A program made the position numbers and the translations under genes. Of a stretch of 64,000 bases of DNA, positions 18,503 to 60,567 are shown piece after piece. The DNA is taken from assembly GCF_036507355.1 (NCBI RefSeq), contig NZ_AP027877.1; one strand, given 5' to 3'. Numbering within the stretch: the stretch's first letter is position 1; every line of letters starts with the position of its first letter. The notes below the pieces were generated by a model. It saw only the letters and a list, made by a program, of their open reading frames with translations. It was not told the DNA's origin and searched no databases. Source of the stretch: Escherichia coli (GTDB lineage Bacteria > Pseudomonadota > Gammaproteobacteria > Enterobacterales > Enterobacteriaceae).

Positions 18503-19315
18503 ATGGCAACAACACAACAATCTGGATTTGCACCTGCTGCATCGCCTCTCGCTTCGACCATCGTTCAGACCCCGGACGACGCGATTGTGGCGGGCTTCAC
18601 CTCTATCCCTTCACAAGGGGATAACATGCCTGCTTACCATGCCAGACCAAAGCAAAGCGATGGCCCACTGCCAGTGGTCATTGTAGTGCAGGAAATTTTT
18701 GGCGTGCATGAACATATCCGCGACATTTGTCGCCGTCTGGCGCTGGAGGGGTATCTGGCTATCGCACCTGAACTTTACTTCCGCGAAGGCGATCCGAATG
18801 ATTTTGCCGATATCCCCACGTTGCTTAGCGGTCTGGTAGCAAAAGTGCCTGACTCGCAGGTGCTGGCCGATCTCGATCATGTCGCCAGTTGGGCTTCCCG
18901 CAACGGCGGCGATGTTCATCGTTTAATGATCACCGGATTCTGCTGGGGTGGACGTATCACCTGGCTGTATGCCGCGCATAATCCACAGCTAAAAGCCGCA
19001 GTGGCGTGGTACGGCAAACTGACGGGCGACAAGTCGCTGAATTCACCGAAACAACCTGTTGATATCGCAACCGATCTTAACGCGCCGGTTCTCGGCTTAT
19101 ATGGCGGTCAGGATAACAGCATTCCGCAGGAGAGCGTTGAAACCATGCGCCAGGCGCTGCGGGCTGCTAATGCGAAAGCAGAGATTATCGTGTACCCGGA
19201 TGCCGGGCATGCATTCAACGCTGATTATCGCCCGAGCTATCATGCCGAATCTGCGAAAGATGGCTGGCAGCGTATGCTGGAATGGTTTAAGCAGTATGGT
19301 GGGAAGCGGAGTTAG
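18503..19315 (+). CDS. ysgA: Dienelactone hydrolase-family protein YsgA
   Basis: Start placed at MATTQQSGFAPAAS with GGAG RBS; alpha/beta hydrolase. Confidence 0.85.
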   Translation: MATTQQSGFAPAASPLASTIVQTPDDAIVAGFTSIPSQGDNMPAYHARPKQSDGPLPVVIVVQEIFGVHEHIRDICRRLALEGYLAIAPELYFREGDPNDFADIPTLLSGLVAKVPDSQVLADLDHVASWASRNGGDVHRLMITGFCWGGRITWLYAAHNPQLKAAVAWYGKLTGDKSLNSPKQPVDIATDLNAPVLGLYGGQDNSIPQESVETMRQALRAANAKAEIIVYPDAGHAFNADYRPSYHAESAKDGWQRMLEWFKQYGGKRS

Positions 19316-19707
19316 TTTCCTCTTAGTCTATATTTGAGATGGTGAGTGAACGAGTGCGTTTTGCTGCCATCTCTGTCCCCCAAAAAATAATCAGTATGAA
19401 TTGATTGGAGATTACGACTCCGCTATTTGACCTTAAGAAAGTCGGCAAGTCATAGTCATAAATGAGTCTCTTCAATGGAAGACACCTTAGAGATTTACCA
19501 TCCACTCCCATTCACAAACAAACATTAATTATTATCAACACATTCACATTAATTATAAATCATCTCAGACCTTCCTGATAAAAAGATATTAAAGTGAAAC
19601 ATTGTGTTTTTCACATTTTAGTTCATCACTTTTAGGCGTAAATAAAGGTAAAAAAACAACAATACTATTTCTCTTTCACAAAAGAATTAACAAAAGGTTT
19701 TTCAAGG

Positions 19708-20856
19708 ATGAGTGATATTATTTACTTGACCATAACCGGAGAACAACAAGGATGTATTTCCTCTCGTTGTGGAACGAGCGCATCAATAGGTAATCGCTGG
19801 CAGATTGGCCATGAAGATGAAATCTTCGCGTTCTCGCTCTCTAATAGTATTACGAATACAGGCAAAGGGTCACAATTGCATGGCCTTAGTTTCTGTAAAT
19901 TGATTGACAAAAGCTCCCCGTTACTTATTAACGCTATTAACAATAACGAGCAGTTGTTCATGGAGTTTGACTTCTATCGGATCAATAGATTTGGTCGATG
20001 GGAGAAATATTACAACATTCAACTCCGCGGCGCGCTCTTATCAGCAATCAATCACCTGTTTACTGAGAACAATCTGGATACAGAAGCCATCACTGTCAGT
20101 TATGAATATATACTCTCCAGGCATCTGATTGCTAATACTGAATTTAGTTATTTGGCATTTCCCGATAACTACAACCGTCTGTTTATACCACGGCCAAAAA
20201 CTAAAGCTGGTAATGGTTTCAAAACACTTAACAGTAAAGCGGTTGGCAGACTGCTTGCTGCTGGTGGCATATACAATGGGAATATCGAAGGATTCAGGGA
20301 AACAGCAGACAAGTTGGGGGGAGATGCACCTGCTGGTTACGATCAATTTATGGATAACAAAGGGTTACTCATCGCTGGTGCTTCAATAGTTGCTGGAGCA
20401 GTTCTGGGGAGAATGAGACTCCCTGATTTGGAATCACTTGAGCATTTCGGAGCCAGAGGAGCAGTATCAGGAAGACCATTTAATCCCGACCTTGCCGGTG
20501 GTCCAATAGAAAATCTGACGACAGATGGCATAACAATCAACAGGGAAGGTATCGCTATTGTTGAAAAACACATAGCCAGATTTGGTCATGACCCTGTAAA
20601 TGAAGTGATGATCAATAGACTGAAAGACATTGAGAAAGGAAAAATCCCCCCAGAACAAGTAGATCTTAACTTCTATACTCATGAGTGTCGGGAATATCAG
20701 CGTTACTGTAATCTTGGTTGGGAAACAGGACAACCTGATGGTGACGCAGGCTATGCACTCTGGAATCATACGCATACTGCTACTCTAGAAGATTATAAAC
20801 TTAAGGGAGAACTTAATGACTTATACCACCAGGATGCACTTGACTATGATAACTGA
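19708..20856 (+). CDS. Hcp-fold protein with ~210-aa C-terminal extension (candidate 'evolved Hcp' type VI secretion effector); C-terminal domain unassigned
   Basis: N-terminal ~165 aa carry Hcp signature blocks (KLIDKSSPLL; FDFYRINRFG) aligning to KEIDSSSPYL and FKWYRIN of canonical Hcp; AAGGA RBS; gene visibly AT-rich; not in the K-12 ysgA-metE interval. Confidence 0.72.
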   Translation: MSDIIYLTITGEQQGCISSRCGTSASIGNRWQIGHEDEIFAFSLSNSITNTGKGSQLHGLSFCKLIDKSSPLLINAINNNEQLFMEFDFYRINRFGRWEKYYNIQLRGALLSAINHLFTENNLDTEAITVSYEYILSRHLIANTEFSYLAFPDNYNRLFIPRPKTKAGNGFKTLNSKAVGRLLAAGGIYNGNIEGFRETADKLGGDAPAGYDQFMDNKGLLIAGASIVAGAVLGRMRLPDLESLEHFGARGAVSGRPFNPDLAGGPIENLTTDGITINREGIAIVEKHIARFGHDPVNEVMINRLKDIEKGKIPPEQVDLNFYTHECREYQRYCNLGWETGQPDGDAGYALWNHTHTATLEDYKLKGELNDLYHQDALDYDN

Positions 20857-21091
20857 AACTGAAATTATCGTACTGAAAGTTATGGCTGAGAAAGATATAA
20901 ACTGGAACTGGATGAATCTCGATCGCACACTATCCATAAGGCAAATTCCAGGATTCGGTAATGTTGTTAACATTGTTAACAAATTAGCTAACGAGGGTTT
21001 GGTTATTATTGAGGATAGCGGACATAAGTCTATGCCTCACTACCACGTTACTGAAAAGGGATACAATTTCGTGAAAAGTGAGAATAAATAA
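20816..21091 (+). CDS. Small protein immediately downstream of the Hcp-extension gene; candidate cognate immunity protein (possible internal start at 20846)
   Basis: The ATG at 20846 overlaps the upstream stop in an ATGA arrangement; 81-91 aa; same strand; AT-rich. Confidence 0.5.
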   Translation: MTYTTRMHLTMITETEIIVLKVMAEKDINWNWMNLDRTLSIRQIPGFGNVVNIVNKLANEGLVIIEDSGHKSMPHYHVTEKGYNFVKSENK

Positions 21092-32510: not shown

Positions 32511-33401
32511 ATGGATGCAAAACAAACGCGGCAGGGCGTATTACTCGCTCTTGCCGCTTATTTTATTTGGGGTATAGCCCCAGCGTACTTCAAGTTGATT
32601 TACTACGTGCCCGCCGATGAAATCCTGACGCATCGCGTGATCTGGTCGTTTTTCTTTATGGTGGTGCTGATGAGCATTTGCCGCCAGTGGTCCTATTTAA
32701 AAACGCTGATTCAGACGCCACAGAAAATTTTTATGCTTGCAGTCTCTGCCGTGCTGATTGGTGGCAACTGGCTACTGTTTATCTGGGCGGTGAACAATCA
32801 CCATATGCTGGAAGCGAGCCTTGGTTACTTTATTAACCCGCTGGTGAACATTGTGCTGGGGATGATTTTCCTCGGCGAGCGATTCCGCCGGATGCAATGG
32901 CTGGCGGTGATTCTGGCGATATGTGGCGTGTTGGTTCAGCTGTGGACTTTTGGTTCACTGCCGATCATCGCGCTGGGACTGGCATTTAGTTTTGCCTTCT
33001 ACGGTCTGGTACGCAAGAAGATTGCCGTTGAAGCGCAAACCGGCATGTTAATCGAAACTATGTGGCTGCTGCCCGTGGCGGCAATTTACCTGTTTGCTAT
33101 TGCCGATAGCTCAACCAGCCATATGGGGCAAAACCCGATATCGCTGAATTTACTGCTGATCGCTGCCGGTATTGTCACTACCGTACCGCTGTTGTGTTTT
33201 ACTGCAGCTGCGACACGCCTGCGTCTCTCAACGTTAGGCTTTTTCCAGTACATTGGCCCGACGCTGATGTTCCTGCTGGCTGTGACGTTTTATGGTGAAA
33301 AACCGGGTGCCGATAAAATGGTGACTTTCGCCTTTATTTGGGTGGCGCTGGCAATTTTTGTGATGGATGCAATTTATACTCAACGTAGAACGTCCAAATA
33401 A
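32511..33401 (+). CDS. rarD: EamA/DMT-family transporter RarD
   Basis: 296-aa polytopic ORF MDAKQTRQGVLLALAAYFIWGIAPAYFKL. Confidence 0.92.
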   Translation: MDAKQTRQGVLLALAAYFIWGIAPAYFKLIYYVPADEILTHRVIWSFFFMVVLMSICRQWSYLKTLIQTPQKIFMLAVSAVLIGGNWLLFIWAVNNHHMLEASLGYFINPLVNIVLGMIFLGERFRRMQWLAVILAICGVLVQLWTFGSLPIIALGLAFSFAFYGLVRKKIAVEAQTGMLIETMWLLPVAAIYLFAIADSSTSHMGQNPISLNLLLIAAGIVTTVPLLCFTAAATRLRLSTLGFFQYIGPTLMFLLAVTFYGEKPGADKMVTFAFIWVALAIFVMDAIYTQRRTSK

Positions 33402-33435
33402 AAAATAAATATATTCTGAAAAAATATGCCGACTC

Positions 33436-33813
33436 TTGCATGAGAGTGGGCATATTGCCATGCTGACAGGAGACTCACACAAGGATGTAAAATTTATGTT
33501 ACGTATGTTTATCCCAACATCTAACGGTAAGATTTCCAGACGCCGTTATATATTTTCATTTATTTTAATAAACTTCATTTTTGCCTTTCTTATTATCTTT
33601 TTTAACGATGGAGAAGCAGGTTTTCTTGTTATAGTCTCTACCATCTTACTCCATTATCTCGTCATCAATCTGAATTGCCAACGACTCCGTGATAGTGGTT
33701 TCGTCTATATAAAAACTTATGTTTTTGGTACATTAGCAGTATATATCATCTCTATCATCACAATGATAGCCGAAGATTTTGCCTGTTCAGGCAATGGTTC
33801 GATGATTTTTTAA
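33436..33813 (+). CDS. yigG: Small inner membrane protein YigG
   Basis: 125-aa ORF with two hydrophobic helices; position after rarD; AT-rich. Confidence 0.6.
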
Positions 33814-33888
33814 TTTGTTATTTTTCCACTTTCAGTATGCTAATGCTTGCACCTACTGATTCATCAAAACAATAGTTATGGAGTATTT

Positions 33889-34269
33889 ATGAGTAAGGAA
33901 TATATGAACGATGGTTCATTAAGTGAAAAATGGAAATACCGATTTAATTTTTATGATCAACATGGTTTTCCTGGATTCTGGGGGGCAACACCAGAATATA
34001 AAGCAGCATTTAAAGCATTAAAAGTAAGACAACGCTTAACTATTCAAATGAATTTCATTGCTTTCTTCTGTTCCTAGATATATTTATTTGTCCTGGGGTT
34101 ATGGAAAAAAGCAATTATAGTTCTATTACTTGGTATTCTATCTCTATTTGTTGGTGCACTAATTGGCGTTAACATTCTGGGTATTGCCGTAGCAGCCTAT
34201 GTTGCTGTTAACACGAACAAATGGTTCTATGAGAAAGAAGTAAAAGGGTTAAATACCTGGAGCCTTTGA
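33889..34269 (+). pseudogene. yigF: yigF (DUF2628-type small membrane protein) interrupted by an in-frame amber codon at 34075-34077
   Basis: MSKEYMNDGSLSEKWKYRFNFYDQHGFPGFWG... stops at TAG after 62 codons, then the same frame stays open for 63 more protein-like hydrophobic codons to TGA at 34267-34269. Confidence 0.6.
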
Positions 34270-34309
34270 ATAAGAGGTGGCTTAGCCAGGCTAAGCCACC
34301 GCCTTCTTT

Positions 34310-34445
34310 TTACAACCAGTTCTTGCGCTTAAAGTACAGATACGGTGCCAGGCCCGCGAGGATCATAAAGATAATCGCGCCTGGGTAGCCGAAACTCCAC
34401 TTCAGTTCTGGCATAAACTCAAAGTTCATGCCATAGCTGGAGGCA
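34310..34445 (-). repeat. Orphan near-identical copy of the corA 3' end (direct repeat of 36017-36150)
   Basis: Encodes ...[43 protein letters not shown], the CorA C-terminus including the GMN motif; only a few mismatches to the intact corA 3' end. Confidence 0.85.
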
Positions 34446-34637
34446 ATCCGCGTAGGAAAAAGTTTCCTAATCGGTAAATTCAACATATTGTTATTAACAA
34501 TGGGCAAAACCAATCAATAACGAGATTCCCTTCGGAATGTAATAAAAATGTGAAGTGTACTTCTTTTTTAAAATTTTTTATCCTAGCATTTGTTCTCAAA
34601 TTGATATTGAGCTTAAATATAACCAAGGAAAATGTAA

Positions 34638-35345
34638 ATGAATAACACATTACTTCCATCAATTAATATTCCCTGTACACTTTTCGAAACTATTAGTTTA
34701 TTTGATGATTATTCTGCTGATGATATGCAATATGGTGATATGGTAGAACAAGATTTTCTCTCACTCGGCCTAAGCGATATCTCAGCAAAAGTTGATCCTT
34801 ACAGACTTATTAAATACCATTTCCCTGGCCCAGGTTCTGTTAATGTTGTTTTTAGTGCCTCAAGTTCCGGAACAAAAATATCACAACGTGAATGCACTGA
34901 TATTTTATTTGCAGAAATGAAAGAACTAGCAAAAAATTTTTCCTTTTTTGGACAATATAAAACACTTATCGAAGATCTGATTGAACATTTTAGATATGGA
35001 AATGGCAGCAATTTTCATAGCCAACAATTAAATTTATCTTTTCATGAAAAGATAAATAAATATGGTTATAATAGTCCAATACGAATAATCAAAGAATGTA
35101 TCGAAAATGGCATTAATTCAACTCCCTCGACAGGATACCAACCTCTTATCCTGCAAAGCATTAAAACCAAATTACTTTCATCAAGACTAAATAAATTTAA
35201 TGACTTCGAGGACAGTTTTAATGGCTTAGGAATCAGTATTCATGATATTTCAGCTCAAAAAAATATCTCTTTTAAGCTTTCAAAAATACGCTATAGGGTG
35301 GAGTGCGACAATTCATTTTGTAGCACAGGACCACTTCGGTCTTGA
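34638..35345 (+). CDS. Hypothetical protein in the AT-rich corA-adjacent insert; probably frameshifted (alternative frame continues to 35487)
   Basis: 235-aa ORF with no match recalled; AT-rich; an A7 tract at 35260-35266 lies where a second frame opens and runs to a TGA overlapping the next gene start. Confidence 0.45.
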   Translation: MNNTLLPSINIPCTLFETISLFDDYSADDMQYGDMVEQDFLSLGLSDISAKVDPYRLIKYHFPGPGSVNVVFSASSSGTKISQRECTDILFAEMKELAKNFSFFGQYKTLIEDLIEHFRYGNGSNFHSQQLNLSFHEKINKYGYNSPIRIIKECIENGINSTPSTGYQPLILQSIKTKLLSSRLNKFNDFEDSFNGLGISIHDISAQKNISFKLSKIRYRVECDNSFCSTGPLRS

Positions 35346-35483
35346 TGTAACTGATATCAAAAACAAGACTTACAGCAAATATAGATTTTTTCGCATATGG
35401 TTCTTTTTACAACGGCATAAAGGCTTTGCTTTCAAACCTTTTTTCACCAATTTTAACACTATCGAAAGAATCGAAAATTATCT

Positions 35484-35975
35484 ATGAAAAGCAAACGCCA
35501 GAAAATTATATTATGTTTATTTCTTCTATGCTGTATCTATAATTTATGGACATTGCGTCCTGTACAGATTTTGTATACATACTCTGATGCTGGCAATTCA
35601 GTCTTTCTGGTCGTTGATCATCTGCCATGGACTGACAGCGATAAAATAAATTGGTATCTGAAGCATCAGAATGAAATTAAAAATCAACATCCCCTACCAG
35701 AAGGTAGTTGGCATACCTGGTATGTCATTGATATCGGTAATGGCTTCACTGACTATAAAAAATATATCGAAGGGCCGTATGAAGATCTCTACTGTTTCCC
35801 GACAATTAAGAGCAATGATAATTGCATCGTGAAAAATTACTTAATGGTTATTAATGAATACCCTTATCGTAACACTCATATTGGTATTAACGATTTTACT
35901 GAGTATCAATTAACACAAGAAAATAAAATAGAGCGAGTTTTCAATCCGCATGACTTTAAAAAAGACAATTTTTAG
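35484..35975 (+). CDS. Hypothetical small membrane-anchored protein (N-terminal signal/TM segment), second gene of the insert
   Basis: 163-aa ORF MKSKRQKIILCLFLLCCIYNLW...; Trp/Tyr-rich; AT-rich; followed by a GCCGGATAAA...TTTATCCGGC hairpin. Confidence 0.5.
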   Translation: MKSKRQKIILCLFLLCCIYNLWTLRPVQILYTYSDAGNSVFLVVDHLPWTDSDKINWYLKHQNEIKNQHPLPEGSWHTWYVIDIGNGFTDYKKYIEGPYEDLYCFPTIKSNDNCIVKNYLMVINEYPYRNTHIGINDFTEYQLTQENKIERVFNPHDFKKDNF

Positions 35976-36016
35976 AAATAAGCCGGATAAAAAAATAGCT
36001 TTATCCGGCACTCATA

Positions 36017-36967
36017 TTACAACCAGTTCTTCCGCTTAAAGTACAGATACGGTGCCAGGCCCGCGAGGATCATAAAGATAATCGCGCCTGGGTAGCCGAA
36101 ACTCCACTTCAGTTCTGGCATAAACTCAAAGTTCATCCCGTAGCTGGAAGCAACCAGCGTTGGCGGCAGGAACACGACGGATACCACCGAGAAAATTTTG
36201 ATGATGCGGTTCTGCTCGATGTTGATAAAACCCATTGCCGCCTGCATCAGGAAGTTCACCTTCTGGAACAGGGATTCGTTATGCGGCAGCAGGGATTCGA
36301 TATCTCGCAGGATTTCACGCGCCTGCTCCAGTTGCCCACCCGGTAAGCGTGCTTTACGTACCAGGAAGTTGAGAGCGCGCTGGGTATCCATCAGACACAG
36401 GCGAACTTTCCAGCCGATATCTTCCAGTTCCGCCAGAGTGGAGAGCGCCTCGTCGTACTCATCGCCCTGATGCCCTTCCATAATCACCCGGCTCAATTGC
36501 TCCAGGTCGCTATAGATATTTTCAATTTCATCTGCCAACTGTTCGATTTTGGTTTCGAACAAATCCAGCAGCAACTCGTAGGCGTTACCGTCTACCATCG
36601 ACTGGCTACGGGCACGCATACGATATAGACGAAAAGCGGGCAGTTCACGCTCACGCAGAGTAAACAGACGACCATCACGGATGGTAAATGCCACAGTGGA
36701 GTTACCGGCGTGATCTTCCGCATCTTCAAAGAAGAAGAAGGAGTGAATATGCAGGCCGTCATCGTCTTCAAAGAAACGTGCCGATGCTTCGATGTCTTCC
36801 AGTTCCGGGCGGGTTGCCAGGCTCTGGCCAAGTTCAGATTGTACGCGCAGTCGCTCGTCGTCGTCCGGTTCGACAAGATCAATCCATACTGCATTTACAA
36901 GGGGTTGTGACTCTTCGACTTCCAGCCGGGTCAGTCGGTTATTTTCCAGTTGAAATGCGCTCAGCAT
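36017..36967 (-). CDS. corA: Magnesium/cobalt transport protein CorA
   Basis: Start placed at [31 protein letters not shown] (316 aa); GMN motif and C-terminal TM helices. Confidence 0.95.
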
Positions 36968-37336
36968 GACCGGGACTCCCAATGCTTAAAATATCGGACA
37001 GTTCGGTGGGCACACAGAAACAAATTGGGTTTCAGACCATTAAACAGCCTGACTCAGCGCGACGGGAAAAATTGAGGTCGCTGACAACCGCTAAGGCTAT
37101 CAGCAAAAAGGGATAGCCTTAGGAGTTGATCCTGGATGACAGGATAGTGAGCCAGTATCTACTGGGTGTGTCCAAGGCGAATGTCCTCTTAGAGTGATCG
37201 TGCGCGCATGTTACGCCAGCAAAATTTTGCCGTCAACACGCAACAGAACACCACAGAACAATAGTTGAACTTCGCGCTTTTTGGTACTCGTCAAGGTCGC
37301 TAACAGGATAAAAAAATCCCACATCCAGGACCTATA

Positions 37337-51083: not shown

Positions 51084-52025
51084 ATGTTAGACAATGTTTT
51101 AAGAATTGCCACACGCCAAAGCCCACTTGCACTCTGGCAGGCACACTATGTCAAAGACAAGTTGATGGCGAGCCATCCGGGCCTGGTCGTTGAACTGGTA
51201 CCGATGGTGACGCGCGGCGATGTGATTCTTGATACGCCGCTGGCGAAAGTAGGCGGAAAAGGCTTATTTGTAAAAGAGCTGGAAGTCGCGCTCCTCGAAA
51301 ATCGCGCCGATATCGCCGTACACTCAATGAAAGATGTGCCGGTTGAATTCCCACAAGGTCTGGGACTGGTCACTATTTGTGAGCGTGAAGATCCTCGCGA
51401 TGCCTTTGTGTCCAATAACTATGACAGTCTGGATGCGTTACCGGCAGGCAGTATCGTCGGGACGTCCAGTTTACGTCGCCAGTGCCAACTGGCTGAACGC
51501 CGCCCGGATCTGATTATCCGCTCCCTGCGCGGCAACGTCGGCACTCGCCTGAGCAAACTGGATAACGGCGAATACGATGCCATCATTCTTGCCGTAGCCG
51601 GACTAAAACGTTTAGGTCTGGAGTCCCGCATTCGCGCCGCGTTGCCACCCGAGATTTCTCTTCCGGCGGTAGGGCAAGGTGCGGTGGGCATTGAATGCCG
51701 CCTTGATGATGCACACACTCGCGAGCTGCTCGCCGCGCTGAATCACCACGAAACTGCACTGCGCGTTACCGCCGAACGCGCCATGAATACCCGTCTCGAA
51801 GGCGGATGTCAGGTGCCAATTGGTAGCTACGCCGAGCTTATTGATGGCGAAATCTGGCTGCGTGCGCTGGTCGGCGCGCCGGACGGCTCGCAGATTATTC
51901 GCGGTGAACGCCGCGGTGCGCCGCAAGATGCCGAACAAATGGGGATTTCGCTGGCAGAAGAGCTACTGAATAACGGCGCGCGCGAGATTCTCGCTGAAGT
52001 CTATAACGGAGACGCCCCGGCATGA
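51084..52025 (+). CDS. hemC: Porphobilinogen deaminase HemC
   Basis: Start placed at [20 protein letters not shown] (313 aa); upstream in-frame ATGs at 51063/51069 are alternatives. Confidence 0.93.
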
Positions 52026-52762
52026 GTATCCTGGTCACCCGCCCGTCTCCCGCTGGAGAAGAGTTAGTGAGCCGTCTGCGCACACTGGGGCAGGTGGCCT
52101 GGCATTTTCCGCTGATTGAGTTTTCTCCGGGTCAACAATTACCGCAACTTGCTGATCAACTGGCAGCGCTGGGGGAGAGCGATCTGTTGTTTGCCCTCTC
52201 GCAACACGCGGTTGCTTTTGCCCAATCACAGCTACATCAGCAAGATCGTAAATGGCCCCGACTACCTAATTATTTCGCCATTGGACGCACCACCGCACTG
52301 GCACTACATACCGTAAGCGGACAGAAGATTCTCTACCCGCAGGATCGGGAAATCAGCGAAGTCTTGCTACAATTACCTGAATTACAAAATATTGCGGGCA
52401 AACGTGCGCTGATATTACGTGGCAATGGCGGTCGTGAGCTAATTGGGGATACCCTGACGGCGCGCGGTGCTGAGGTCACTTTTTGTGAATGTTATCAACG
52501 ATGCGCAATCCATTACGATGGTGCAGAAGAAGCGATGCGCTGGCAATCCCGCGAGGTGACGACGGTCGTTGTTACCAGCGGTGAAATGTTGCAGCAACTC
52601 TGGTCGCTGATCCCACAATGGTATCGTGAGCACTGGTTACTACACTGTCGACTATTGGTCGTCAGTGAGCGTTTGGCGAAACTCGCCCGGGAACTGGGCT
52701 GGCAAGACATTAAGGTCGCCGATAACGCTGACAACGATGCGCTTTTACGGGCATTACAATAA
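52022..52762 (+). CDS. hemD: Uroporphyrinogen-III synthase HemD
   Basis: 246-aa ORF with 4-bp overlap on the hemC stop. Confidence 0.93.
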
Positions 52763-52783
52763 CTCTCATAACAGGAAGCCATA

Positions 52784-53977
52784 ATGACGGAACAAGAAAA
52801 AACCTCCGCCGTGGTTGAAGAGACCAGGGAGGCCGTGGACACCACGTCACAACCTGTCGCAACAGAAAAAAAGAGTAAGAACAATACCGCATTGATTCTC
52901 AGCGCGGTGGCTATCGCTATTGCTCTGGCGGCGGGCGTCGGTTTGTATGGCTGGGGTAAACAACAGGCCGTCAATCAGACCGCCACCAGCGATGCCCTGG
53001 CTAACCAACTGACGGCATTGCAAAAAGCCCAGGAGAGCCAAAAAGCCGAGCTGGAAGGCATTATTAAGCAACAAGCTGCACAGCTTAAGCAGGCGAATCG
53101 TCAGCAAGAAACGCTGGCAAAACAGTTGGATGAAGTCCAACAAAAGGTCGCCACCATTTCCGGCAGCGATGCTAAAACCTGGCTGCTGGCTCAGGCCGAT
53201 TTTCTGGTGAAACTCGCCGGACGGAAGCTGTGGAGCGATCAGGACGTCACGACCGCTGCAGCGTTGCTGAAAAGTGCAGACGCCAGCCTGGCGGATATGA
53301 ATGACCCAAGTCTGATTACCGTTCGTCGGGCAATTACCGATGATATCGCCAGCCTTTCTGCAGTATCGCAGGTGGATTATGACGGCATCATCCTTAAGCT
53401 TAATCAGCTTTCAAATCAGGTAGATAACCTGCGTCTGGCCGATAATGACAGCGATGGTTCGCCGATGGATTCCGACGGTGAAGAGCTTTCCAGTTCCATC
53501 AGCGAATGGCGTATCAATCTGCAAAAAAGCTGGCAGAACTTTATGGACAACTTCATTACGATTCGCCGTCGTGATGACACCGCCGTACCGCTGTTAGCGC
53601 CAAATCAGGATATCTATCTGCGCGAAAATATTCGCTCTCGCCTGCTGGTCGCAGCACAAGCTGTACCGCGTCACCAGCAAGAGACTTATCGCCAGGCGCT
53701 GGAGAACGTCTCCACCTGGGTACGTGCTTACTACGATACTGATGATGCCACCACCAAAGCGTTCCTCGACGAGGTGGACCAGTTAAGCCAGCAAAATATC
53801 TCGATGGATCTTCCGGAAACCCTGCAAAGCCAGGCGATGCTGGAAAAACTGATGCAGACTCGCGTGCGTAACCTGCTGGCACAACCGGCAGCGGGGACAA
53901 CGGAAGCTAAACCTGCACCTGCACCGCAAGCTGCACCGCAAGCTGATACTCCGGCAGCCGCGCCGCAAGGAGAATAA
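52784..53977 (+). CDS. hemX: HemX membrane protein
   Basis: 397-aa ORF with TM segment and Gln/Ala-rich coiled coil; Pro/Ala-rich C-terminus. Confidence 0.9.
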
Positions 53978-53979
53978 CC

Positions 53980-55176
53980 ATGCTAAAAGTGTTATTGCTC
54001 TTTGTGTTGCTGATTGCGGGGATCGTGGTTGGCCCGATGATTGCCGGTCATCAGGGTTATGTGCTGATCCAGACCGACAACTACAATATCGAAACCAGCG
54101 TCACGGGCCTGGCGATCATATTGATTCTGGCGATGGTAGTGCTGTTTGCCATTGAGTGGCTACTGCGGCGGATCTTCCGCACTGGCGCGCACACCCGTGG
54201 GTGGTTTGTCGGGCGTAAGCGTCGCCGTGCACGTAAGCAGACCGAACAGGCGCTGCTGAAACTGGCGGAAGGCGATTATCAGCAAGTTGAAAAGCTGATG
54301 GCGAAAAATGCCGATCACGCTGAACAACCGGTGGTGAACTATCTACTGGCTGCCGAAGCCGCGCAACAACGTGGTGATGAAGCGCGCGCCAACCAACATC
54401 TGGAACGCGCAGCGGAGCTGGCCGGCAATGACACCATTCCGGTAGAAATCACCCGTGTACGTCTGCAACTGGCCCGTAATGAAAACCATGCTGCACGCCA
54501 CGGCGTGGATAAGCTGCTGGAAGTTACGCCACGCCATCCGGAAGTATTACGTCTGGCGGAACAGGCGTATATCCGCACAGGTGCATGGAGTTCGCTGCTG
54601 GATATTATCCCATCAATGGCGAAAGCCCATGTTGGTGATGAAGAACATCGTGCAATGCTGGAACAACAGGCATGGATTGGCCTGATGGATCAGGCGCGTG
54701 CCGATAACGGTAGCGAAGGTTTGCGTAACTGGTGGAAAAACCAAAGCCGGAAAACGCGTCATCAGGTAGCGTTGCAGGTGGCAATGGCGGAACATCTTAT
54801 TGAATGTGACGATCATGATACTGCCCAGCAAATTATCATCGATGGCCTGAAACGCCAGTACGACGATCGCCTACTGCTGCCGATTCCTCGACTGAAAACA
54901 AACAATCCGGAACAGCTGGAAAAAGTGCTGCGCCAGCAAATCAAAAACGTCGGCGATCGCCCGCTGTTGTGGAGCACACTGGGCCAGTCACTGATGAAGC
55001 ACGGAGAATGGCAGGAAGCATCGCTCGCCTTCCGCGCAGCGCTGAAACAACGTCCGGACGCCTACGATTACGCATGGCTTGCCGACGCGCTGGACAGACT
55101 GCACAAGCCGGAAGAAGCTGCAGCGATGCGTCGCGACGGTTTGATGTTAACGTTGCAGAACAACCCACCACAGTAG
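53980..55176 (+). CDS. hemY: HemY TPR-containing membrane protein
   Basis: 398-aa ORF MLKVLLLFVLLIAGIVVGPMIAGHQGYVLIQTDNYNIETSVTGLAIILILAMVVLFAIEWLLRRIF. Confidence 0.93.
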   Translation: MLKVLLLFVLLIAGIVVGPMIAGHQGYVLIQTDNYNIETSVTGLAIILILAMVVLFAIEWLLRRIFRTGAHTRGWFVGRKRRRARKQTEQALLKLAEGDYQQVEKLMAKNADHAEQPVVNYLLAAEAAQQRGDEARANQHLERAAELAGNDTIPVEITRVRLQLARNENHAARHGVDKLLEVTPRHPEVLRLAEQAYIRTGAWSSLLDIIPSMAKAHVGDEEHRAMLEQQAWIGLMDQARADNGSEGLRNWWKNQSRKTRHQVALQVAMAEHLIECDDHDTAQQIIIDGLKRQYDDRLLLPIPRLKTNNPEQLEKVLRQQIKNVGDRPLLWSTLGQSLMKHGEWQEASLAFRAALKQRPDAYDYAWLADALDRLHKPEEAAAMRRDGLMLTLQNNPPQ

Positions 55177-55223
55177 TTCCTTCTCACCCGGAGGCAAGCA
55201 CCTCCGGGGCCTTCCTGACACAT

Positions 55224-55430
55224 AAAAAAACGCCTGCTCTTATTACGGAGCAGGCGTTAAAACAGGTCTGTATGACAACAAGTGGGTGCTTCACTCAACG
55301 TTGTGTCCATGGTGTCTGATGAGGCATAAGCGACATCTGTCAGTGGACGATAAGCACCGTAAACGGCTCTGCGTCATTCCGGAGTTTATGAGGCACTAAG
55401 GCGAACATAAGAGATGGAATGAGCATCTAC
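55224..55430 (-). ncRNA. glmZ: GlmZ small regulatory RNA
   Basis: Minus strand reads GTAGATGCTCATTCCATCTCTTATGTTCGCCTTAGTGCCTCATAAACTCC...AACGCCTGCTCCGTAATAAGAGCAGGCGTTTTTTT, matching GlmZ as recalled, in the expected hemY-aslA spacer with its terminator. Confidence 0.88.
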
Positions 55431-55854
55431 TCGTTTATTATGCCACAGAGAATCGGGAAATAACATCCCTTAACACTTGTTATGAGATAATTCTGTAATC
55501 CTCTTTGCTTCCTGAGTAATAACTTCCTGAGTGAACATTTAACCTGAGCTTGATCCTACACATACTTATTATGAATGATAAAATTCATTCAATTAATAAC
55601 ACATATATTAATTGCCGTTAAAACTAAAAACATCATTAATAATCAACGCGATATAATAAACCTGCCTTACATATCAACTGCGCCAGAGGTAGGATTGAAA
55701 ACGCTCTCCTGATTTTTAAATTCATTTCTTGGATAAATAAATAATTTATTTTTATCACTATTATTTATGTAATCATCCTGTCAGGGAGAGGGATCTCAAT
55801 TATCAATGCTTAATTACGTCATCATTTTGTTGACATGAAACCGGAGCATTTTGC

Positions 55855-57510
55855 ATGGAATTTTCGTTTTCACCCAAACGTCTTGTTGTTGCTGTCGCCG
55901 CCGCTCTTCCTCTCATGGCCAGCGCAGCAGATACCCCGTCAACTGCCACCGCACGCAAAGGCTTTGCCGGATACGATCACCCAAACCAGTATCTGGTTAA
56001 ACCGGCGACCACTATTGCCGACAATATGATGCCAGTAATGCAGCATCCGGCGCAGGATAAAGAAACCCAGCAGAAGCTGGCAGAACTTGAGAAAAAAACC
56101 GGTAAGAAACCGAATGTGGTTGTTTTCTTGCTGGACGATGTGGGCTGGATGGACGTCGGTTTTAACGGTGGCGGCGTGGCGGTGGGTAACCCTACACCAG
56201 ATATCGACGCCGTTGCCAGCCAGGGGCTGATTTTAACTTCGGCGTATTCTCAACCAAGCTCTTCCCCAACCCGCGCCACCATTCTCACCGGACAATACTC
56301 CATCCACCACGGCATTCTGATGCCGCCAATGTACGGGCAACCGGGCGGGCTGCAAGGGTTAACCACGCTGCCGCAGTTGCTGCACGATCAGGGCTACGTC
56401 ACTCAGGCCATCGGGAAATGGCATATGGGGGAAAACAAAGAGTCGCAGCCGCAGAACGTTGGCTTTGATGATTTCCGTGGCTTTAACTCGGTGTCTGATA
56501 TGTACACCGAATGGCGCGACGTTCACGTAAACCCGGAAGTGGCCCTGAGTCCGGACCGTTCTGAATACATCAAGCAATTACCATTTAGCAAAGATGACGT
56601 TCATGCGGTGCGCGGCGGCGAACAACAGGCCATTGCCGACATTACGCCGAAATATATGGAAGATCTGGATCAACGCTGGATGGAATATGGCGTTAAGTTC
56701 CTCGACAAGATGGCGAAGAGTGATAAGCCTTTCTTCCTCTATTACGGCACTCGCGGCTGTCACTTCGATAACTACCCGAACGCCAAATATGCGGGTAGCT
56801 CTCCGGCACGCACCTCGTATGGCGACTGCATGGTGGAAATGAACGATGTGTTCGCTAATCTGTATAAAGCACTGGAGAAAAACGGTCAGCTTGATAACAC
56901 GCTGATTGTCTTTACCTCCGATAACGGACCGGAAGCCGAAGTACCGCCGCACGGACGCACACCGTTCCGTGGTGCGAAAGGATCTACCTGGGAAGGCGGC
57001 GTTCGCGTTCCGACTTTCGTGTACTGGAAAGGGATGATCCAACCGCGTAAATCTGACGGTATTGTCGATCTGGCAGATCTCTTCCCTACCGCGCTGGATC
57101 TGGCAGGGCATCCTGGCGCGAAAGTGGCGAATTTAGTGCCGAAAACCACCTTTATCGATGGTGTGGACCAGACATCTTTCTTCCTGGGAACAAATGGTCA
57201 GTCTAACCGTAAGGCCGAGCACTACTTCCTCAACGGTAAACTCGCTGCTGTGCGTATGGATGAATTCAAGTATCACGTCCTGATTCAGCAACCTTACGCT
57301 TATACCCAGAGCGGATATCAGGGTGGATTCACCGGCACAGTAATGCAAACAGCCGGATCGTCGGTGTTTAACCTGTACACCGATCCGCAGGAGAGCGACT
57401 CCATCGGCGTGCGCCATATTCCGATGGGTGTACCGCTACAGACCGAAATGCACGCGTATATGGAGATCCTGAAAAAGTATCCACCACGCGCGCAGATTAA
57501 ATCTGATTAA
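55855..57510 (+). CDS. aslA: Arylsulfatase AslA (signal peptide)
   Basis: 551-aa ORF with signal peptide and sulfatase features ([11 protein letters not shown]...[10 protein letters not shown]). Confidence 0.93.
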
Positions 57511-57546
57511 GCCGGCGATATCGCTACATCGGGCCACACTGACCTT

Positions 57547-57652
57547 GCCGGATGCGGCGTGAACGCCTTATCCGGCCTACAAGCCTTGCAAATTCAATAA
57601 ATTGTAACGTTCTGTAGGCCGGATAAGATGCGGTCAGCATCGCATCCGGCAA
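57547..57652. repeat. RIP element (REP - IHF-site spacer - REP)
   Basis: GCCGGATGCGGCGTGAACGCCTTATCCGGCCTAC ... GCAAATTCAATAAATTG ... GTAGGCCGGATAAGATGCGGTCAGCATCGCATCCGGCA. Confidence 0.85.
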
Positions 57653-57676
57653 TCAACCGCAGGCGGCCGCCGATTT

Positions 57677-58822
57677 CTACTTACTCACCACCAGCAAATG
57701 CGCCTGCATAATGTCGCTGGCCGGGCGACCGTGCGCCAGCAAATCAGCCATTGCTTTAAGATATGGCGGTAGATGGCGGAAATAACGCTGATACCCGGCA
57801 CACAAATAATTCAGCCCCGGTTTGCCGCTGGCATCGAGCATGAAGCGGTGTTTCGGGCAGCCTCCCCAACATGCTTTTAACACGTTACAACTGCGACACT
57901 GCGCCGGTAACTGCTTAAATTTATCTTCACCAAACACCTGCTGTTGCGGGGAATCGATCATTTCTGCAATTGTTTGCTGGTGCATATTCCCCAGTCGATA
58001 TTGCGGATAAACATAGTGATCGCAGGCGTAAACGTCGCCATTGTGCTCAACAATCACCGAGCGCCCACAGGTTGGCTGATGATGGCAAACCGCACCCGGC
58101 GCACCGACAAAATTGGCAAACGCCCATTCGATATTCATCACGAAAATCTTGCCGACGTCGCATTTGATCCAGTGGTCGAATATCGCCACCAGAAATTCAC
58201 CAAATTCATCGGGGCGCACCGACCATTCCGTCAGTTCCCCCTGAATATCACCAGGCGCATGTAGTTTCAGTCCATCGCGGGCAGCTGTTTCATCAGCCAG
58301 GCGCTCGACCACCGGAATAAACTGGATGAATTCGACTCCCGCATCGCACAAAAAATCATATACCTGCAACGGTTGCTGCGCGCTGGTGCGATTAACGCAG
58401 ACCAGCACGTTATAGTCGACATGATGTTTTTGCAGGAACGTCAGGGCACGCATCACCAGCTTATGCGTGGGTCTGCCACCTTTAGTCACGCGATATTGAT
58501 TGTGGATCTCAGCCGGACCATCCAGCGATAACCCAACAAGAAAATGATTTTCTGCCAGAAATGCACACCATTCATCATCGAGCAGCACGCCGTTAGTCTG
58601 GAAGCTGTTACTTATCTTCCTGCCAGCACCATATTTCGCCTGTAGCGCTACGGCACGGCGGTAAAACTCCAGCCCGAGTAGCGTTGGTTCGCCGCCCTGC
58701 CAGGTAAAAGCCACTTCGTTTTGCGGTTCGCTGGCAGCGATATAGTGACGGACATACGCTTCCAGCGTGTCATCGTCCATATGCGTGACTGGCTTTTCGC
58801 GGTAAAGGGATTGTTTTTCGAG
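57677..58822 (-). pseudogene. aslB: Anaerobic sulfatase-maturating enzyme AslB, 3' portion (codon 31 onward), separated from its 5' end by an IS insertion
   Basis: Minus strand reads LEKQSLYREKPVTHMDDDTLEAYVRHYIAASEP... directly abutting the IS end; the radical-SAM CxxxCxxC start of the gene lies on the other side of the IS. Confidence 0.88.
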
Positions 58823-59892
58823 GCTGAATTTACAATCCAAGTGCAACAAAAAAAGAAGTACTCATCAACTAGAATATAATTTTGTTTCCACACAAAAACC
58901 ACTTCCAAATGATGAGTACTTCCTACCGACATCTTACAATAAACGAGCGAGAAAAGATAATGATTTTACTCGCACAGGGCAAAAAACAAGCAGAAATTGC
59001 CAAAGCACTGGGACGTAGCTCCAGCACCATTTCTCGCGAGCTGAAACGACACGCTCTAGAAAGCTACAGTGCAACGAACGCACAAAACAGCTATTTGAAG
59101 CATCGTCAAAATAGCAAAGCACAGCGCAAATTAGAGCAGCCTGAATATTTCAATTTGGTGCAAGAAAAGTTTCTGACAGAAAACTGGTCGCCCGAACAAA
59201 TCAGCGCACGATTAAAATTGGAAAAATCTGAATTATCCATTAGTTATTCAACCATTTATCGTGGTATTTATTCAGGGTTGTTTGATATAGGCGAACGCAA
59301 AGCCAGTCGCAAACTGCGCCACAAAGGCAAAACACGGCATACAAAAAATCATCATGAAAAACGTGGCAAAATTCAGATATCCAACCATTTGAACGACCGT
59401 CCCATTTCGGCGCAAAATCGCAGTCGCTTTGGACATTGGGAAGCCGATACCGTACTGGGTAAAGCGGGTGGAGCTTGTTTGCTGACGCTGACGGAACGCA
59501 AAAGTCGTTTTGAGTTGGTGAAGAAAATTCCTGCCAAAAAAGCCGAAGCAGTCCAAAAAGCCATGATTGAATTGCTGGATTCACATATATTGCGGTCAAT
59601 TACGCCAGACCGTGGTAAAGAATTTGCCCAACATCGTTTGGTAACAGAAGCACTGGGTGTAGAATTTTACTTCCCCGAGCCGCATCAACCGTGGACACGG
59701 GGAACGAATGAAAATACAAATGGGTTACTTCGTGAATACTTTCCGAAGCACCAAGACATCAATCAGTGGAGCGAAGTTGATATTCAACAGGTGATCAATA
59801 AACTGAATTTACGACCACGTAAATGTTTAGGTTGGAAAACACCTTATGAAGTTTACTTCAAAAAATCGTTGCACTTGGTTTGACAATTCAAG
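58823..59892 (+). mobile_element. IS30-family insertion sequence, 1070 bp, ISApl1-like by size and 2-bp target duplication
   Basis: Imperfect terminal inverted repeats (left TGAATTTACAATCCAAGTGCAAC; right revcomp TGAATTGTCAAACCAAGTGCAAC); flanked by AG at 58821-58822 and 59893-59894; removing the element plus one AG restores aslB ...CDYCFYLEKQSLY... Confidence 0.85.
58909..59883 (+). CDS. IS30-family DDE transposase
   Basis: MMSTSYRHLTINEREKIMILLAQGKKQAEIAKALGRSSSTISRELKRH (HTH) ... GHWEADTV ... PWTRGTNENTNGLLREYFPK, typical of IS30-family transposases. Confidence 0.88.
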   Translation: MMSTSYRHLTINEREKIMILLAQGKKQAEIAKALGRSSSTISRELKRHALESYSATNAQNSYLKHRQNSKAQRKLEQPEYFNLVQEKFLTENWSPEQISARLKLEKSELSISYSTIYRGIYSGLFDIGERKASRKLRHKGKTRHTKNHHEKRGKIQISNHLNDRPISAQNRSRFGHWEADTVLGKAGGACLLTLTERKSRFELVKKIPAKKAEAVQKAMIELLDSHILRSITPDRGKEFAQHRLVTEALGVEFYFPEPHQPWTRGTNENTNGLLREYFPKHQDINQWSEVDIQQVINKLNLRPRKCLGWKTPYEVYFKKSLHLV

Positions 59893-59984
59893 AGATAAAA
59901 ACAGTAGTCACAGTTCAGATTACAATCGGAACCGCTCGGTTTCGCCATCACATGAAAAGCACGCGTTGGAACCTGTTGCAGCAT
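59893..59984 (-). pseudogene. aslB: aslB 5' fragment (first ~30 codons) stranded by the IS insertion
   Basis: Minus strand reads MLQQVPTRAFHVMAKPSGSDCNLNCDYCFYL, including the radical-SAM CxxxCxxC motif, then runs into the IS right end. Confidence 0.85.
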
Positions 59985-60094: not shown

Positions 60095-60124
60095 GAAAAC
60101 AAAAAACCCCGCCGAAGCGGGGTT
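60095..60124 (-). terminator. Rho-independent terminator of the argX-hisR-leuT-proM tRNA operon
   Basis: Minus strand CCCCGC-TTCG-GCGGGG hairpin followed by TTTTTTGTTTT, immediately 3' of proM. Confidence 0.8.
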
Positions 60125-60130
60125 CAAAAT

Positions 60131-60207
60131 TGGTCGGCGAGAGAGGATTCGAACCTCCGACCCACTGGTCCCAAACCAGTTGCGCTACCAAGCTGCGCTA
60201 CTCGCCG
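60131..60207 (-). tRNA. proM: tRNA-Pro
   Basis: Minus strand reads CGGCGAGTAGCGCAGCTTGGTAGCGCAACTGGTTTGGGACCAGTGGGTCGGAGGTTCGAATCCTCTCTCGCCGACCA. Confidence 0.95.
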
Positions 60208-60249
60208 AAATACTGCTTTTTGAATTTTTAGTTCAATTCTTTAAAGTCG

Positions 60250-60336
60250 TGGTGCGAGGGGGGGGACTTGAACCCCCACGTCCGTAAGGACACTAACACC
60301 TGAAGCTAGCGCGTCTACCAATTCCGCCACCTTCGC
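60250..60336 (-). tRNA. leuT: tRNA-Leu (long variable arm)
   Basis: Minus strand reads GCGAAGGTGGCGGAATTGGTAGACGCGCTAGCTTCAGGTGTTAGTGTCCTTACGGACGTGGGGGTTCAAGTCCCCCCCCTCGCACCA. Confidence 0.95.
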
Positions 60337-60356
60337 ATTGTCACAACTTCTAATAA

Positions 60357-60433
60357 TGGGGTGGCTAATGGGATTCGAACCCACGACAACTGGAATCACA
60401 ATCCAGGGCTCTACCAACTGAGCTATAGCCACC
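60357..60433 (-). tRNA. hisR: tRNA-His
   Basis: Minus strand reads GGTGGCTATAGCTCAGTTGGTAGAGCCCTGGATTGTGATTCCAGTTGTCGTGGGTTCGAATCCCATTAGCCACCCCA. Confidence 0.95.
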
Positions 60434-60490
60434 ACTACAAATCTTGTTACGCGGTATTACTACCACCGCAGCTCAAGCGCCGGGACTAAA

Positions 60491-60567
<77 letters not shown>

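Follow-up and report, generated by a model that had tools for sequence, protein, structure and literature searches.

ISApl1 was first described in Actinobacillus pleuropneumoniae AP76. As an earlier sequence-only reading of the present locus had stated, it is an IS30-family insertion sequence that makes 2-bp duplications and mobilises mcr-1; it does so in Tn6330 (PMC5404521, PMC5821093). Its inverted repeats (IRs) have been published as 27-bp sequences with six mismatches (PMC5404521), and its published target is T-rich upstream and A-rich downstream, with a duplicated pair that is less AT-rich (PMC6349718, PMC5404521). In Escherichia coli 17MR471, 12 ISApl1 copies are reported to self-circularise, including one cloned with the same flanks as the copy studied here, and the transposase residues D163, D217 and E251 are experimentally needed for circle formation (PMC10916398). 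IS30 has natural hot spots, which are nearly palindromic ‘LHS’-type targets. To our knowledge, no hot spot has been experimentally defined for ISApl1.

Here we analysed a 64-kb stretch of E. coli DNA (the window) in which ISApl1 interrupts the chromosomal gene aslB. The element is already known and only the location of this copy is particular; the unexpected point, and the new finding, is that the same site is reused in other genomes. The copy resembles Tn6330, the composite transposon ISApl1-mcr-1-pap2-ISApl1, in that the insertion sequence and the target rules are the same (PMC5821093, PMC6349718). Unlike Tn6330, it adjoins no second ISApl1, mcr-1 or pap2, and aslB sequence borders it directly on either side, where the duplication matches. 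Coordinates of all features are collected in Table 1.

Table 1. Features of the interrupted aslB locus, in window coordinates
Feature	Position	Strand	Remarks
aslB 3′ fragment, codon 31 to stop	57677..58822	-	translation: TIGR03942 anaerobic sulfatase maturase
T5 arm of symmetric target TTTTT-CG[AG]AT-AAAAA	58814..58818	.	ends 2 bp before the duplicated AG
Target-site duplication AG, left copy	58821..58822	.	from sequence
Complete ISApl1	58823..59892	+	1070 bp; full-length 100% identity
IRL, 27 bp	58823..58849	+	GCTGAATTTACAATCCAAGTGCAACAA; identical to oligonucleotide ‘ISApl1-F-IRL-27’ (PMC10916398 Table S2)
Transposase CDS, RefSeq-style	58909..59883	+	324 aa + stop; sole ORF; span as RefSeq WP_012478345.1 in L001
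IRR, 27 bp	59866..59892	+	reverse complement CTTGAATTGTCAAACCAAGTGCAACGA is the published IRR primer
Target-site duplication AG, right copy	59893..59894	.	from sequence
aslB 5′ fragment, codons 1-31	59893..59984	-	from translation; includes CX3CX2C motif CNLNCDYC
A5 arm of symmetric target TTTTT-CG[AG]AT-AAAAA	59897..59901	.	starts 2 bp after the duplicated AG
Intrinsic terminator of tRNA operon	60125-60104	-	context only
tRNA-Arg/His/Leu/Pro operon	60131-60567 (with terminator 60104..60567)	-	context only; outside the element

Identity and boundaries of the element

The sequence-only reading had called the element ISApl1-like; it is in fact ISApl1 itself. All 1070 bases are identical (0 mismatches) to ISApl1 in more than 400 plasmid records and 231 complete E. 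coli genomes, the A. pleuropneumoniae AP76 plasmid NC_010942 carries one full-length 100% match, and its two termini agree base for base with the oligonucleotides IRL-27 and IRR-27 of PMC10916398. Matching copies are annotated as ‘IS30-like element ISApl1 family transposase’, and the 1070-bp length that the sequence-only reading gave for ISApl1 agrees with these full-length matches. The extent first read from the sequence, 1070 bp with AG on both sides, was confirmed, while the IRs of ‘~23 bp’ proposed at that time describe the well-matched core at positions 3-25 but not the full repeats, which are 27 bp long and match at 21 of 27 terminal positions. This equals the 27-bp repeats with six mismatches in the literature (PMC5404521). 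The single IS30-family transposase was likewise read correctly: the only ORF, on the plus strand, matches NCBIfam NF033563 (IS30 family transposase; E = 3.3e-92, 309 bits, cut-off 80), contains an N-terminal HTH_38 domain and an rve domain (DDE core), and retains all three catalytic residues; the 307-aa version found in the literature starts at 58960. TACAAT at 58831-58836 inside IRL and an outward-facing TTGACA at 59880-59885 inside IRR are the -10 and -35 halves of the promoter of the circular intermediate, and the joined element ends read TTGACA-17 bp-TACAAT.

The left junction reads ATTGTTTTTCG-AG followed by the element start GCTGAATTTACAATCC, and the right junction reads the element end GGTTTGACAATTCAAG followed by AG-ATAAAAACAG. 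On its own the window copy fits two boundaries, AG with a 1070-bp element or GAG with a 1069-bp element. Because the aslB copy in strain EPSSH018 has the same ends with CG/CG flanks, and because the IRL-27 and IRR-27 oligonucleotides match exactly, a 2-bp duplication with 1070 bp is the correct assignment and the 3-bp alternative is ruled out; empty sites in other genomes also agree with a duplication of 2 bp. A 2-bp repeat by itself is weak evidence, since it arises by chance in 1 of 16 cases. The insertion is strongly evidenced because the empty site can be reconstructed, more than by the AG repeat: deletion of 58823-59894, that is, of the element and one AG, gives a 411-aa AslB frame that has no internal stop and reads CNLNCDYCFYLEKQSLYREK, so that the earlier claim of a restored gene holds. 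The reconstructed sequence aligns without gaps over 5670 bp to nine empty-site genomes (GATTGTTTTTCGAGATAAAAACAGTAG) at 98.2-99.1% identity, and in all nine aslB is intact with 411 aa.

Two readings that would make the element or its position only apparent carry next to no weight. A reading of the element as another member of the IS30 family, or as a defective ISApl1 remnant, could appeal only to the general similarity among IS30-family elements, and was rejected on the absence of any mismatch in 1070 bases and on the intact ORF, IRs and DDE residues; true defective relatives look unlike the window copy, being internally deleted to 411 bp in Actinobacillus indolicus and carrying a 37-bp deletion with 10 mismatches in Moraxella pluranimalium. 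A collapsed or misjoined repeat that set the element into aslB during assembly is equally hard to credit. Multi-copy IS elements do break short-read assemblies, and three draft contigs with the same insertion all stop inside the IS; against this, both junctions are present here, the duplication matches and the target can be rebuilt exactly, and independent complete assemblies show the same junctions.

Within the window ISApl1 is a solo copy without cargo, as had been proposed: one IRL core and one IRR core were the only ISApl1 ends in the 64 kb, with no second ISApl1 end, and no mcr-1 start was found in the same stretch. Instead of the two direct ISApl1 repeats around mcr-1 and pap2 by which Tn6330 is recognised, aslB lies on both sides of the IS. 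In many other sampled chromosomal ISApl1 copies, pap2 is present on the IRL side.

The disrupted aslB and its untouched surroundings

The insertion splits aslB directly after CX3CX2C, leaving 31 residues, with the radical-SAM cluster motif among them, on one side and the other 380 on the other. Hence the allele is most likely null, as judged from gene architecture, and the inactivation claimed by the sequence-only reading is reasonable to suppose, as is its claim that the insertion is recent. Translation of the 5′ fragment continues into IRR for 12 foreign codons and then meets a stop (MLQQ...CFYL-LNCQTKCNDFLK*). The 3′ fragment is cut off from the start codon and the Fe-S cluster motif; it matches TIGR03942 with E = 6.7e-140 over profile positions 22-362 of 363, and the equivalent fragment in 17MR471 is a pseudogene according to RefSeq. 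When the truncated AslB was looked up exactly, in versions of 390 and 367 aa, there was no match. What AslB does physiologically in E. coli K-12 is uncertain, and the phenotype of the insertion may therefore be nil; the disrupted gene is probably dispensable and the cellular consequence is likely small.

The insertion leaves the tRNA operon, its terminator and the convergent aslA gene physically intact. The element had been described as lying just upstream of the tRNA operon terminator, which is correct in plus-strand coordinates; the operon is on the minus strand, however, and in the direction of transcription the IS is downstream, 212 bp beyond the terminator. A hybrid outward promoter made of the -35 half in IRR and the aslB flank was considered and rejected, as no promoter-like site spanning the right junction came out of a consensus scan. 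The best -10 that we could pick out by eye at a spacing of 17 bp is AGTAGT, and no gene lies downstream in the outward direction from this junction.

Reuse of the aslB site and target preference

At least seven further public E. coli genomes have ISApl1 in the same 4-bp spot of aslB, namely 17MR471, E423, EPSSH018, three draft assemblies and GCA_949281895.1. At least five of the further copies are at the same AG, in both orientations, and one (EPSSH018) is shifted by 2 bp to CG. In 17MR471 and the three drafts the site, orientation and duplication are as in the window; in E423 and GCA_949281895.1 the IS is in the opposite orientation. Altogether the insertions of eight genomes fall inside 4 bp; they show three configurations and lie on at least six flank haplotypes, counts that come from a small sampling. 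The junction query gave no 100% match among complete RefSeq E. coli genomes, and the best match to the 6.8-kb flank was only 98.6%. Look-ups of the chimeric 32-aa peptides expected at the CG site returned no match, a result of little weight since such short ORFs are rarely called as genes.

The copy in 17MR471 (NZ_CP051158.1) is ‘ISApl1-2’ of PMC10916398, with the same dinucleotide, orientation and duplication, and the cloning primers agggattgtttttcgaggct and tgactactgtttttatctctt of that study match both window junctions. The two sequences show no difference over the IS, the 95 bp to its left and the 122 bp to its right, whereas the surrounding background differs by 64 SNPs in 1140 bp of aslB on the left and 29 SNPs in 1950 bp on the right. 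The gene is not named as aslB in PMC10916398 and reuse of the site is not remarked on. Our literature search found no paper joining ISApl1 with aslB, and the aslB site is absent from the supplements of PMC6349718 and PMC5404521.

We compared the site with a target matrix of 58 independent half-sites, none of them from aslB, taken from 18 E. coli chromosomal copies, from metagenome and species-representative loci, and from primer-derived flanks of 17MR471; the metagenome IRL scan gave four loci, which alone are too few for a target logo. The outward consensus of this matrix is NN-(A/T)-T-AAAAA. Scored on it, the AG site in aslB comes 7th among the 62,908 positions of the window, and the site also fits the T-rich and A-rich pattern published for ISApl1. 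On the sense strand it reads TGTTTTTAT-CT-CGAAAAACA and encodes the conserved C-F-Y-L-E-K-Q just past the radical-SAM motif. It resembles the hot spots of IS30 in being an imperfect palindrome, with the duplicated pair at its centre, and it receives the IS in either orientation; the ISApl1 consensus obtained in this analysis, for its part, is short and AT-rich (TTTTA-N-NN-N-TAAAA). As an explanation of the recurrence, matrix fit alone seems insufficient, although the statistics are weak: three of four control sites (L033, L017 and L034) outscore aslB and are occupied in their source strain or clone only, and no independent reuse was found at any of the four. On balance we lean towards codon 31 of aslB being a natural ISApl1 hot spot, used in both orientations, in unrelated lineages and more often than a simple AT-rich consensus would predict. 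We regard this as a modest lead.

Origin of the insertion and its implications

An intact, predicted transposition-competent ISApl1 was almost certainly inserted into codon 31 of chromosomal aslB by simple transposition. We infer the pathway by analogy with IS30 and with the published ISApl1 experiments, and we also infer the reason for the site preference. ISApl1 uses copy-out-paste-in transposition. A donor copy elsewhere in the cell, plasmid-borne or chromosomal and possibly within Tn6330, would have formed a circle or IR-IR junction with a 2-bp spacer, and this junction would assemble the TTGACA-17 bp-TACAAT promoter and raise transposase expression. The transposase would then cut the IR tips and attack the two strands of the target, with a 2-bp offset, in the middle of its symmetric and AT-rich sequence, and host repair would leave AG duplicated.

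The agreement of the window with 17MR471 and the three drafts in site, orientation and duplication, and the identity of the window and 17MR471 copies over ~1.3 kb around the IS, would also be expected if the aslB::ISApl1 allele had been imported from another E. coli by short-patch homologous recombination, with no transposition in this lineage. We consider such an import very improbable. The patch would be at most ~1.3 kb, of which 1.07 kb is the non-homologous IS, and the opposite-orientation and 2-bp-shifted copies need independent transpositions in any case; moreover, E423 and one draft (L046) have identical flanks and yet opposite IS orientation. It is also unlikely that the recurrence reflects selection for, or tolerance of, aslB loss in ISApl1-carrying strains in place of a transposase preference. 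The apparent dispensability of aslB, the loss of most of aslA as well in EPSSH018 and the higher-scoring controls that are not reused are all in keeping with it, but selection for gene loss would scatter insertions over the 1.2-kb gene, and all eight insertions fall in a single 4-bp stretch, which is among the top 0.01% of matches to the target consensus. Tolerance of aslB loss probably contributes and cannot fix the position.

ISApl1 is present in 234 of 5426 complete E. coli genomes (4.3%), and in a scan of species-representative genomes it was found in Actinobacillus, [Haemophilus] felis and Moraxella only. This carriage and occurrence, together with a G+C of 41.7% compared with ~52% for the chromosome around it, indicate that the element is foreign to E. 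coli. Given the tight linkage between ISApl1 and mcr-1, a lone copy in the chromosome suggests a strain that hosts or once hosted Tn6330, and an active transposase may be present in it. As the copy is intact and an identical junction has been published as circularising, it could excise and seed further rearrangements. If the hot spot is true, an extra determinant would be at work, for example the DNA shape of the T5/A5 tracts, occupancy by nucleoid proteins or the heavily transcribed tRNA operon ~200 bp away; the site would then be a defined native target on which in vitro integration could be assayed, and a sentinel locus, readable by one PCR, of ISApl1 activity in mcr-1 surveillance. One 4-bp site reused in at least eight genomes would, if confirmed in an unselected library, be the first defined native hot spot of ISApl1, and such a native hot spot would help the study of target choice by IS30-family transposases.

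Identity and boundaries of the element

The element in aslB is an already known one, whose ends, target rule and mechanism are all in print: over its full 1070 bases it shows 100% identity to annotated ISApl1 copies, so that the assignment to an ISApl1-type IS30-family element by the sequence-only reading holds. ISApl1 belongs to the IS30 family, has 27-bp inverted repeats (IRs) with six mismatches, makes 2-bp duplications and mobilises mcr-1 in the composite transposon Tn6330 (PMC5404521, PMC5821093). In the window copy, the IRs are identical at 21 of 27 positions, its two ends have the sequences of the IRL-27 and IRR-27 oligonucleotides (Table S2 of PMC10916398), and G+C is 41.7% compared with ~52% over most of the window. 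The one long ORF, on the + strand, scores 309 bits with NF033563 (cut-off 80) and keeps D163, D217 and E251 (307-aa numbering), residues whose mutation left ISApl1 circular products absent (PMC10916398). The copy had also been described as solo and without cargo, and our search of the 64-kb window likewise found a single IR core of each kind, left and right, and no match to the mcr-1 start at ≤3 mismatches.

Features of the window
Feature	Position	Strand	Details
Hcp-like ORF	19708-20856	+	382 aa; first 147 residues match Hcp/TssD type VI secretion tube protein, TIGR03344, E = 1.6e-36
rarD-like gene	32511-33401		
YPO3983-family ORF	34638-35345		TIGR03034, E = 6.7e-89, profile positions 1-215 of 274 only
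163-aa ORF	35484-35975		no NCBIfam match
corA	36017-36982		
ISApl1	58823-59892		1070 bp; flanked by AG at both 58821-58822 and 59893-59894; read from sequence
Transposase ORF	58909-59883	+	324 aa; NCBIfam NF033563 'IS30 family transposase', Pfam HTH_38 and rve
tRNA operon terminator	60125-60104	-	
tRNA-Arg/His/Leu/Pro operon	60131-60567	-	

IS30-family elements transpose by copy-out-paste-in: a circular or dimeric form arises in which a 2-bp spacer joins the IRs, and the transposase then attacks target strands 2 bp apart, repair of which makes the duplication (PMC9333248). ISApl1 is itself reported to self-circularise, with a 2-bp spacer at the junction, and its transposase to bind the IRs (PMC10916398); IR-IR junctions with 2-bp spacers are reported too (PMC6349718). 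Joining the ends of the window copy in silico created TTGACA-17 bp-TACAAT, a predicted near-consensus promoter from which transcription would enter the transposase gene.

Across the insertion the sequence runs GGGATTGTTTTTCG-AG, the element GCTGAATTTACAATCCAAGTGCAAC...TTGCACTTGGTTTGACAATTCAAG, and AG-ATAAAAACAGTAG. Taken alone, the window copy fits either an AG duplication with a 1070-bp element or a GAG duplication with a 1069-bp one; the latter is ruled out because the aslB copy of strain EPSSH018 carries CG on either side of these same ends and so sets the duplication at 2 bp and the element at 1070 bp. The clean AG duplication of the earlier reading thus stands, and so does its claim that removing the element and one AG restores aslB: deletion of 58823-59894 in silico gave a 411-aa AslB without internal stops. 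We also located public assemblies through the window AslA protein, and in all nine places among the matches listed aslB was intact (411–421 aa), the reconstructed aslA-thrP segment (5670 bp) aligned without gaps across the site at 98.2–99.1% identity, and the empty site GATTGTTTTTCGAGATAAAAACAGTAG was present. A 2-bp repeat arises by chance 1 time in 16, and the empty-site reconstruction is much stronger evidence of insertion.

The 1070 bases matched 449 plasmid records, 403 of them with a near-full-length copy, including A. pleuropneumoniae AP76 (NC_010942) and Pasteurella plasmids. Among 5426 complete E. coli genomes, 234 had a match (231 near full length). Matches lie at 929 places, of which 634 are on chromosomes, with a median of 2 and a maximum of 41 copies per genome. 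Variant copies occur in other genera. On an Actinobacillus indolicus 46K2C contig (L011, 1937-2347), a 411-bp derivative joins bases 1-227 to 880-1070, retaining both ends and lacking the transposase core, and the contig also bears an entire copy further on; the derivative is possibly a non-autonomous, MITE-like element. In Moraxella pluranimalium CCUG 54913 (L009, 443-1475), from a genus proposed as the mcr-1 source, a copy lacks 37 internal bp (bases 209-245) and has 10 mismatches over the rest; it is a diverged and probably defective relative.

Effect on aslB and other features of the window

The aslB gene lies on the minus strand, and the cut falls within codon 31, with the CNLNCDYC cluster motif immediately before it. 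What remains at the 5′ end encodes 31 AslB residues and 12 IS-derived residues before a stop; the alignment of the 3′ fragment to the anaerobic sulfatase maturase model begins at profile position 22. Because this 3′ fragment has neither the cluster motif nor its own start codon, the split gene is likely a null allele. The convergent aslA is unaffected, and the promoter scan gave no promoter-like site across the right ISApl1-aslB junction. The placement of the element just upstream of the tRNA operon terminator is correct in + strand coordinates only; operon and terminator are on the minus strand, and ISApl1 sits beyond the latter at a distance of 212 bp. What AslB does in E. coli K-12 is not well defined and AslA activity is cryptic, hence the phenotype may be slight. 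The location is unremarkable and probably neutral.

Elsewhere in the window, a low-G+C island (33400-36000, 32–40% compared with ~52%) lies between the rarD-like gene and corA, and its YPO3983-family ORF looks truncated or frameshifted. In a second such stretch (19000-21000, ~42%), the Hcp-like ORF continues for ~235 residues beyond the profile match and looks like a C-terminally extended Hcp that may be an effector. The hemD/hemX/hemY-aslA-aslB segment (52000-58822) had nothing above 98.6% over its full length among complete RefSeq E. coli genomes, unlike the AslA protein, which is widespread in public assemblies.

Repeated occupation of the aslB site

Three further strains in the complete-genome collection carry ISApl1 at the aslB site: 17MR471 (AG, orientation as in the window), E423 (AG, opposite) and EPSSH018 (CG, 2 bp to the left, opposite). 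Exact look-up of chimeric AslB-IS peptides added four genomes, the drafts GCA_020168995.1, GCA_045952475.1 and GCA_014892455.1, configured as in the window, and GCA_949281895.1 (AG, opposite). Pairs among the four long loci are separated by 25–69 SNPs over 1140 bp of aslB, and the 1900-bp thrP-side flanks of the eight genomes form at least six haplotypes 5–39 SNPs apart. In E423 and a draft assembly (L046), the IS lies in opposite orientations between identical flanks. E423 and GCA_949281895.1 may share one event, because only 1 flank SNP and 1 IS SNP separate them; the E423 copy (L002, 3151-4220) is one base off canonical ISApl1 (99.9%), and that of GCA_949281895.1 is 100% canonical. The three configurations (AG in window orientation, AG opposite, CG opposite) require at least three separate events, and the number is probably about seven. 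In EPSSH018 (NZ_CP125889.1), aslA is down to a 138-nt remnant adjoining hemY (L003, 1760-1897); given the aslB insertion as well, the asl locus as a whole is decaying in this strain.

PMC10916398 lists the aslB copy of 17MR471 as 'ISApl1-2', one of 12 cloned copies that it reports to circularise; the primers used to clone it, agggattgtttttcgaggct and tgactactgtttttatctctt, match both window junctions. A search of the accessible literature for aslB together with ISApl1 found no paper, so reuse of the site does not seem to have been remarked on. The outer flank ATACAAATTATAAATA beside IRR is common to EC590 (right flank) and the 17MR471 primers ISApl1-4-R and ISApl1-6-R, so that these two strains share the position of an ISApl1 or Tn6330 end, which may reflect shared descent or another reused site.

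Target preference and the hot-spot question

A target matrix was built from 58 distinct non-aslB half-sites of other copies (18 E. coli chromosomes, metagenome contigs, species-representative contigs and 17MR471 primers). Its outward consensus, NN-(A/T)-T-A-A-A-A-A with 66–74% A at positions 5–8, agrees with the published pattern of T upstream and A downstream (PMC6349718). In the reconstructed window, the aslB AG site ranked 7 of 62,908 positions and the CG site 39; the former scores 12.2 bits, and six duplication-verified simple insertions span 9.9–14.2. Moreover, the target is an imperfect palindrome, TTTTT-CG[AG]AT-AAAAA, with the duplicated pair central, a symmetry that fits occupation in both orientations.

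Roughly 500 sites per genome (extrapolated) would score as well as the AG site. We compared four control junctions, of which three outscore aslB (the four are orgA in DC71, a hypothetical gene in SA186, dosC in SC516 and an intergenic site in PT62). Each was occupied in its source strain or its clone only, whereas aslB, by the same query design, was occupied in three genomes, which points to a true hot spot, alone or combined with tolerance of aslB loss. By a rough estimate, the excess would have p ~1e-3 under plausible assumptions and is not significant under the most generous; with four controls and a crude matrix, these statistics are not firm. Selection alone is unlikely to explain the recurrence, since every insertion is confined to 4 bp of a 1.2-kb gene. 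The apparent hot spot is the sole lead from this ISApl1 insertion worth pursuing.
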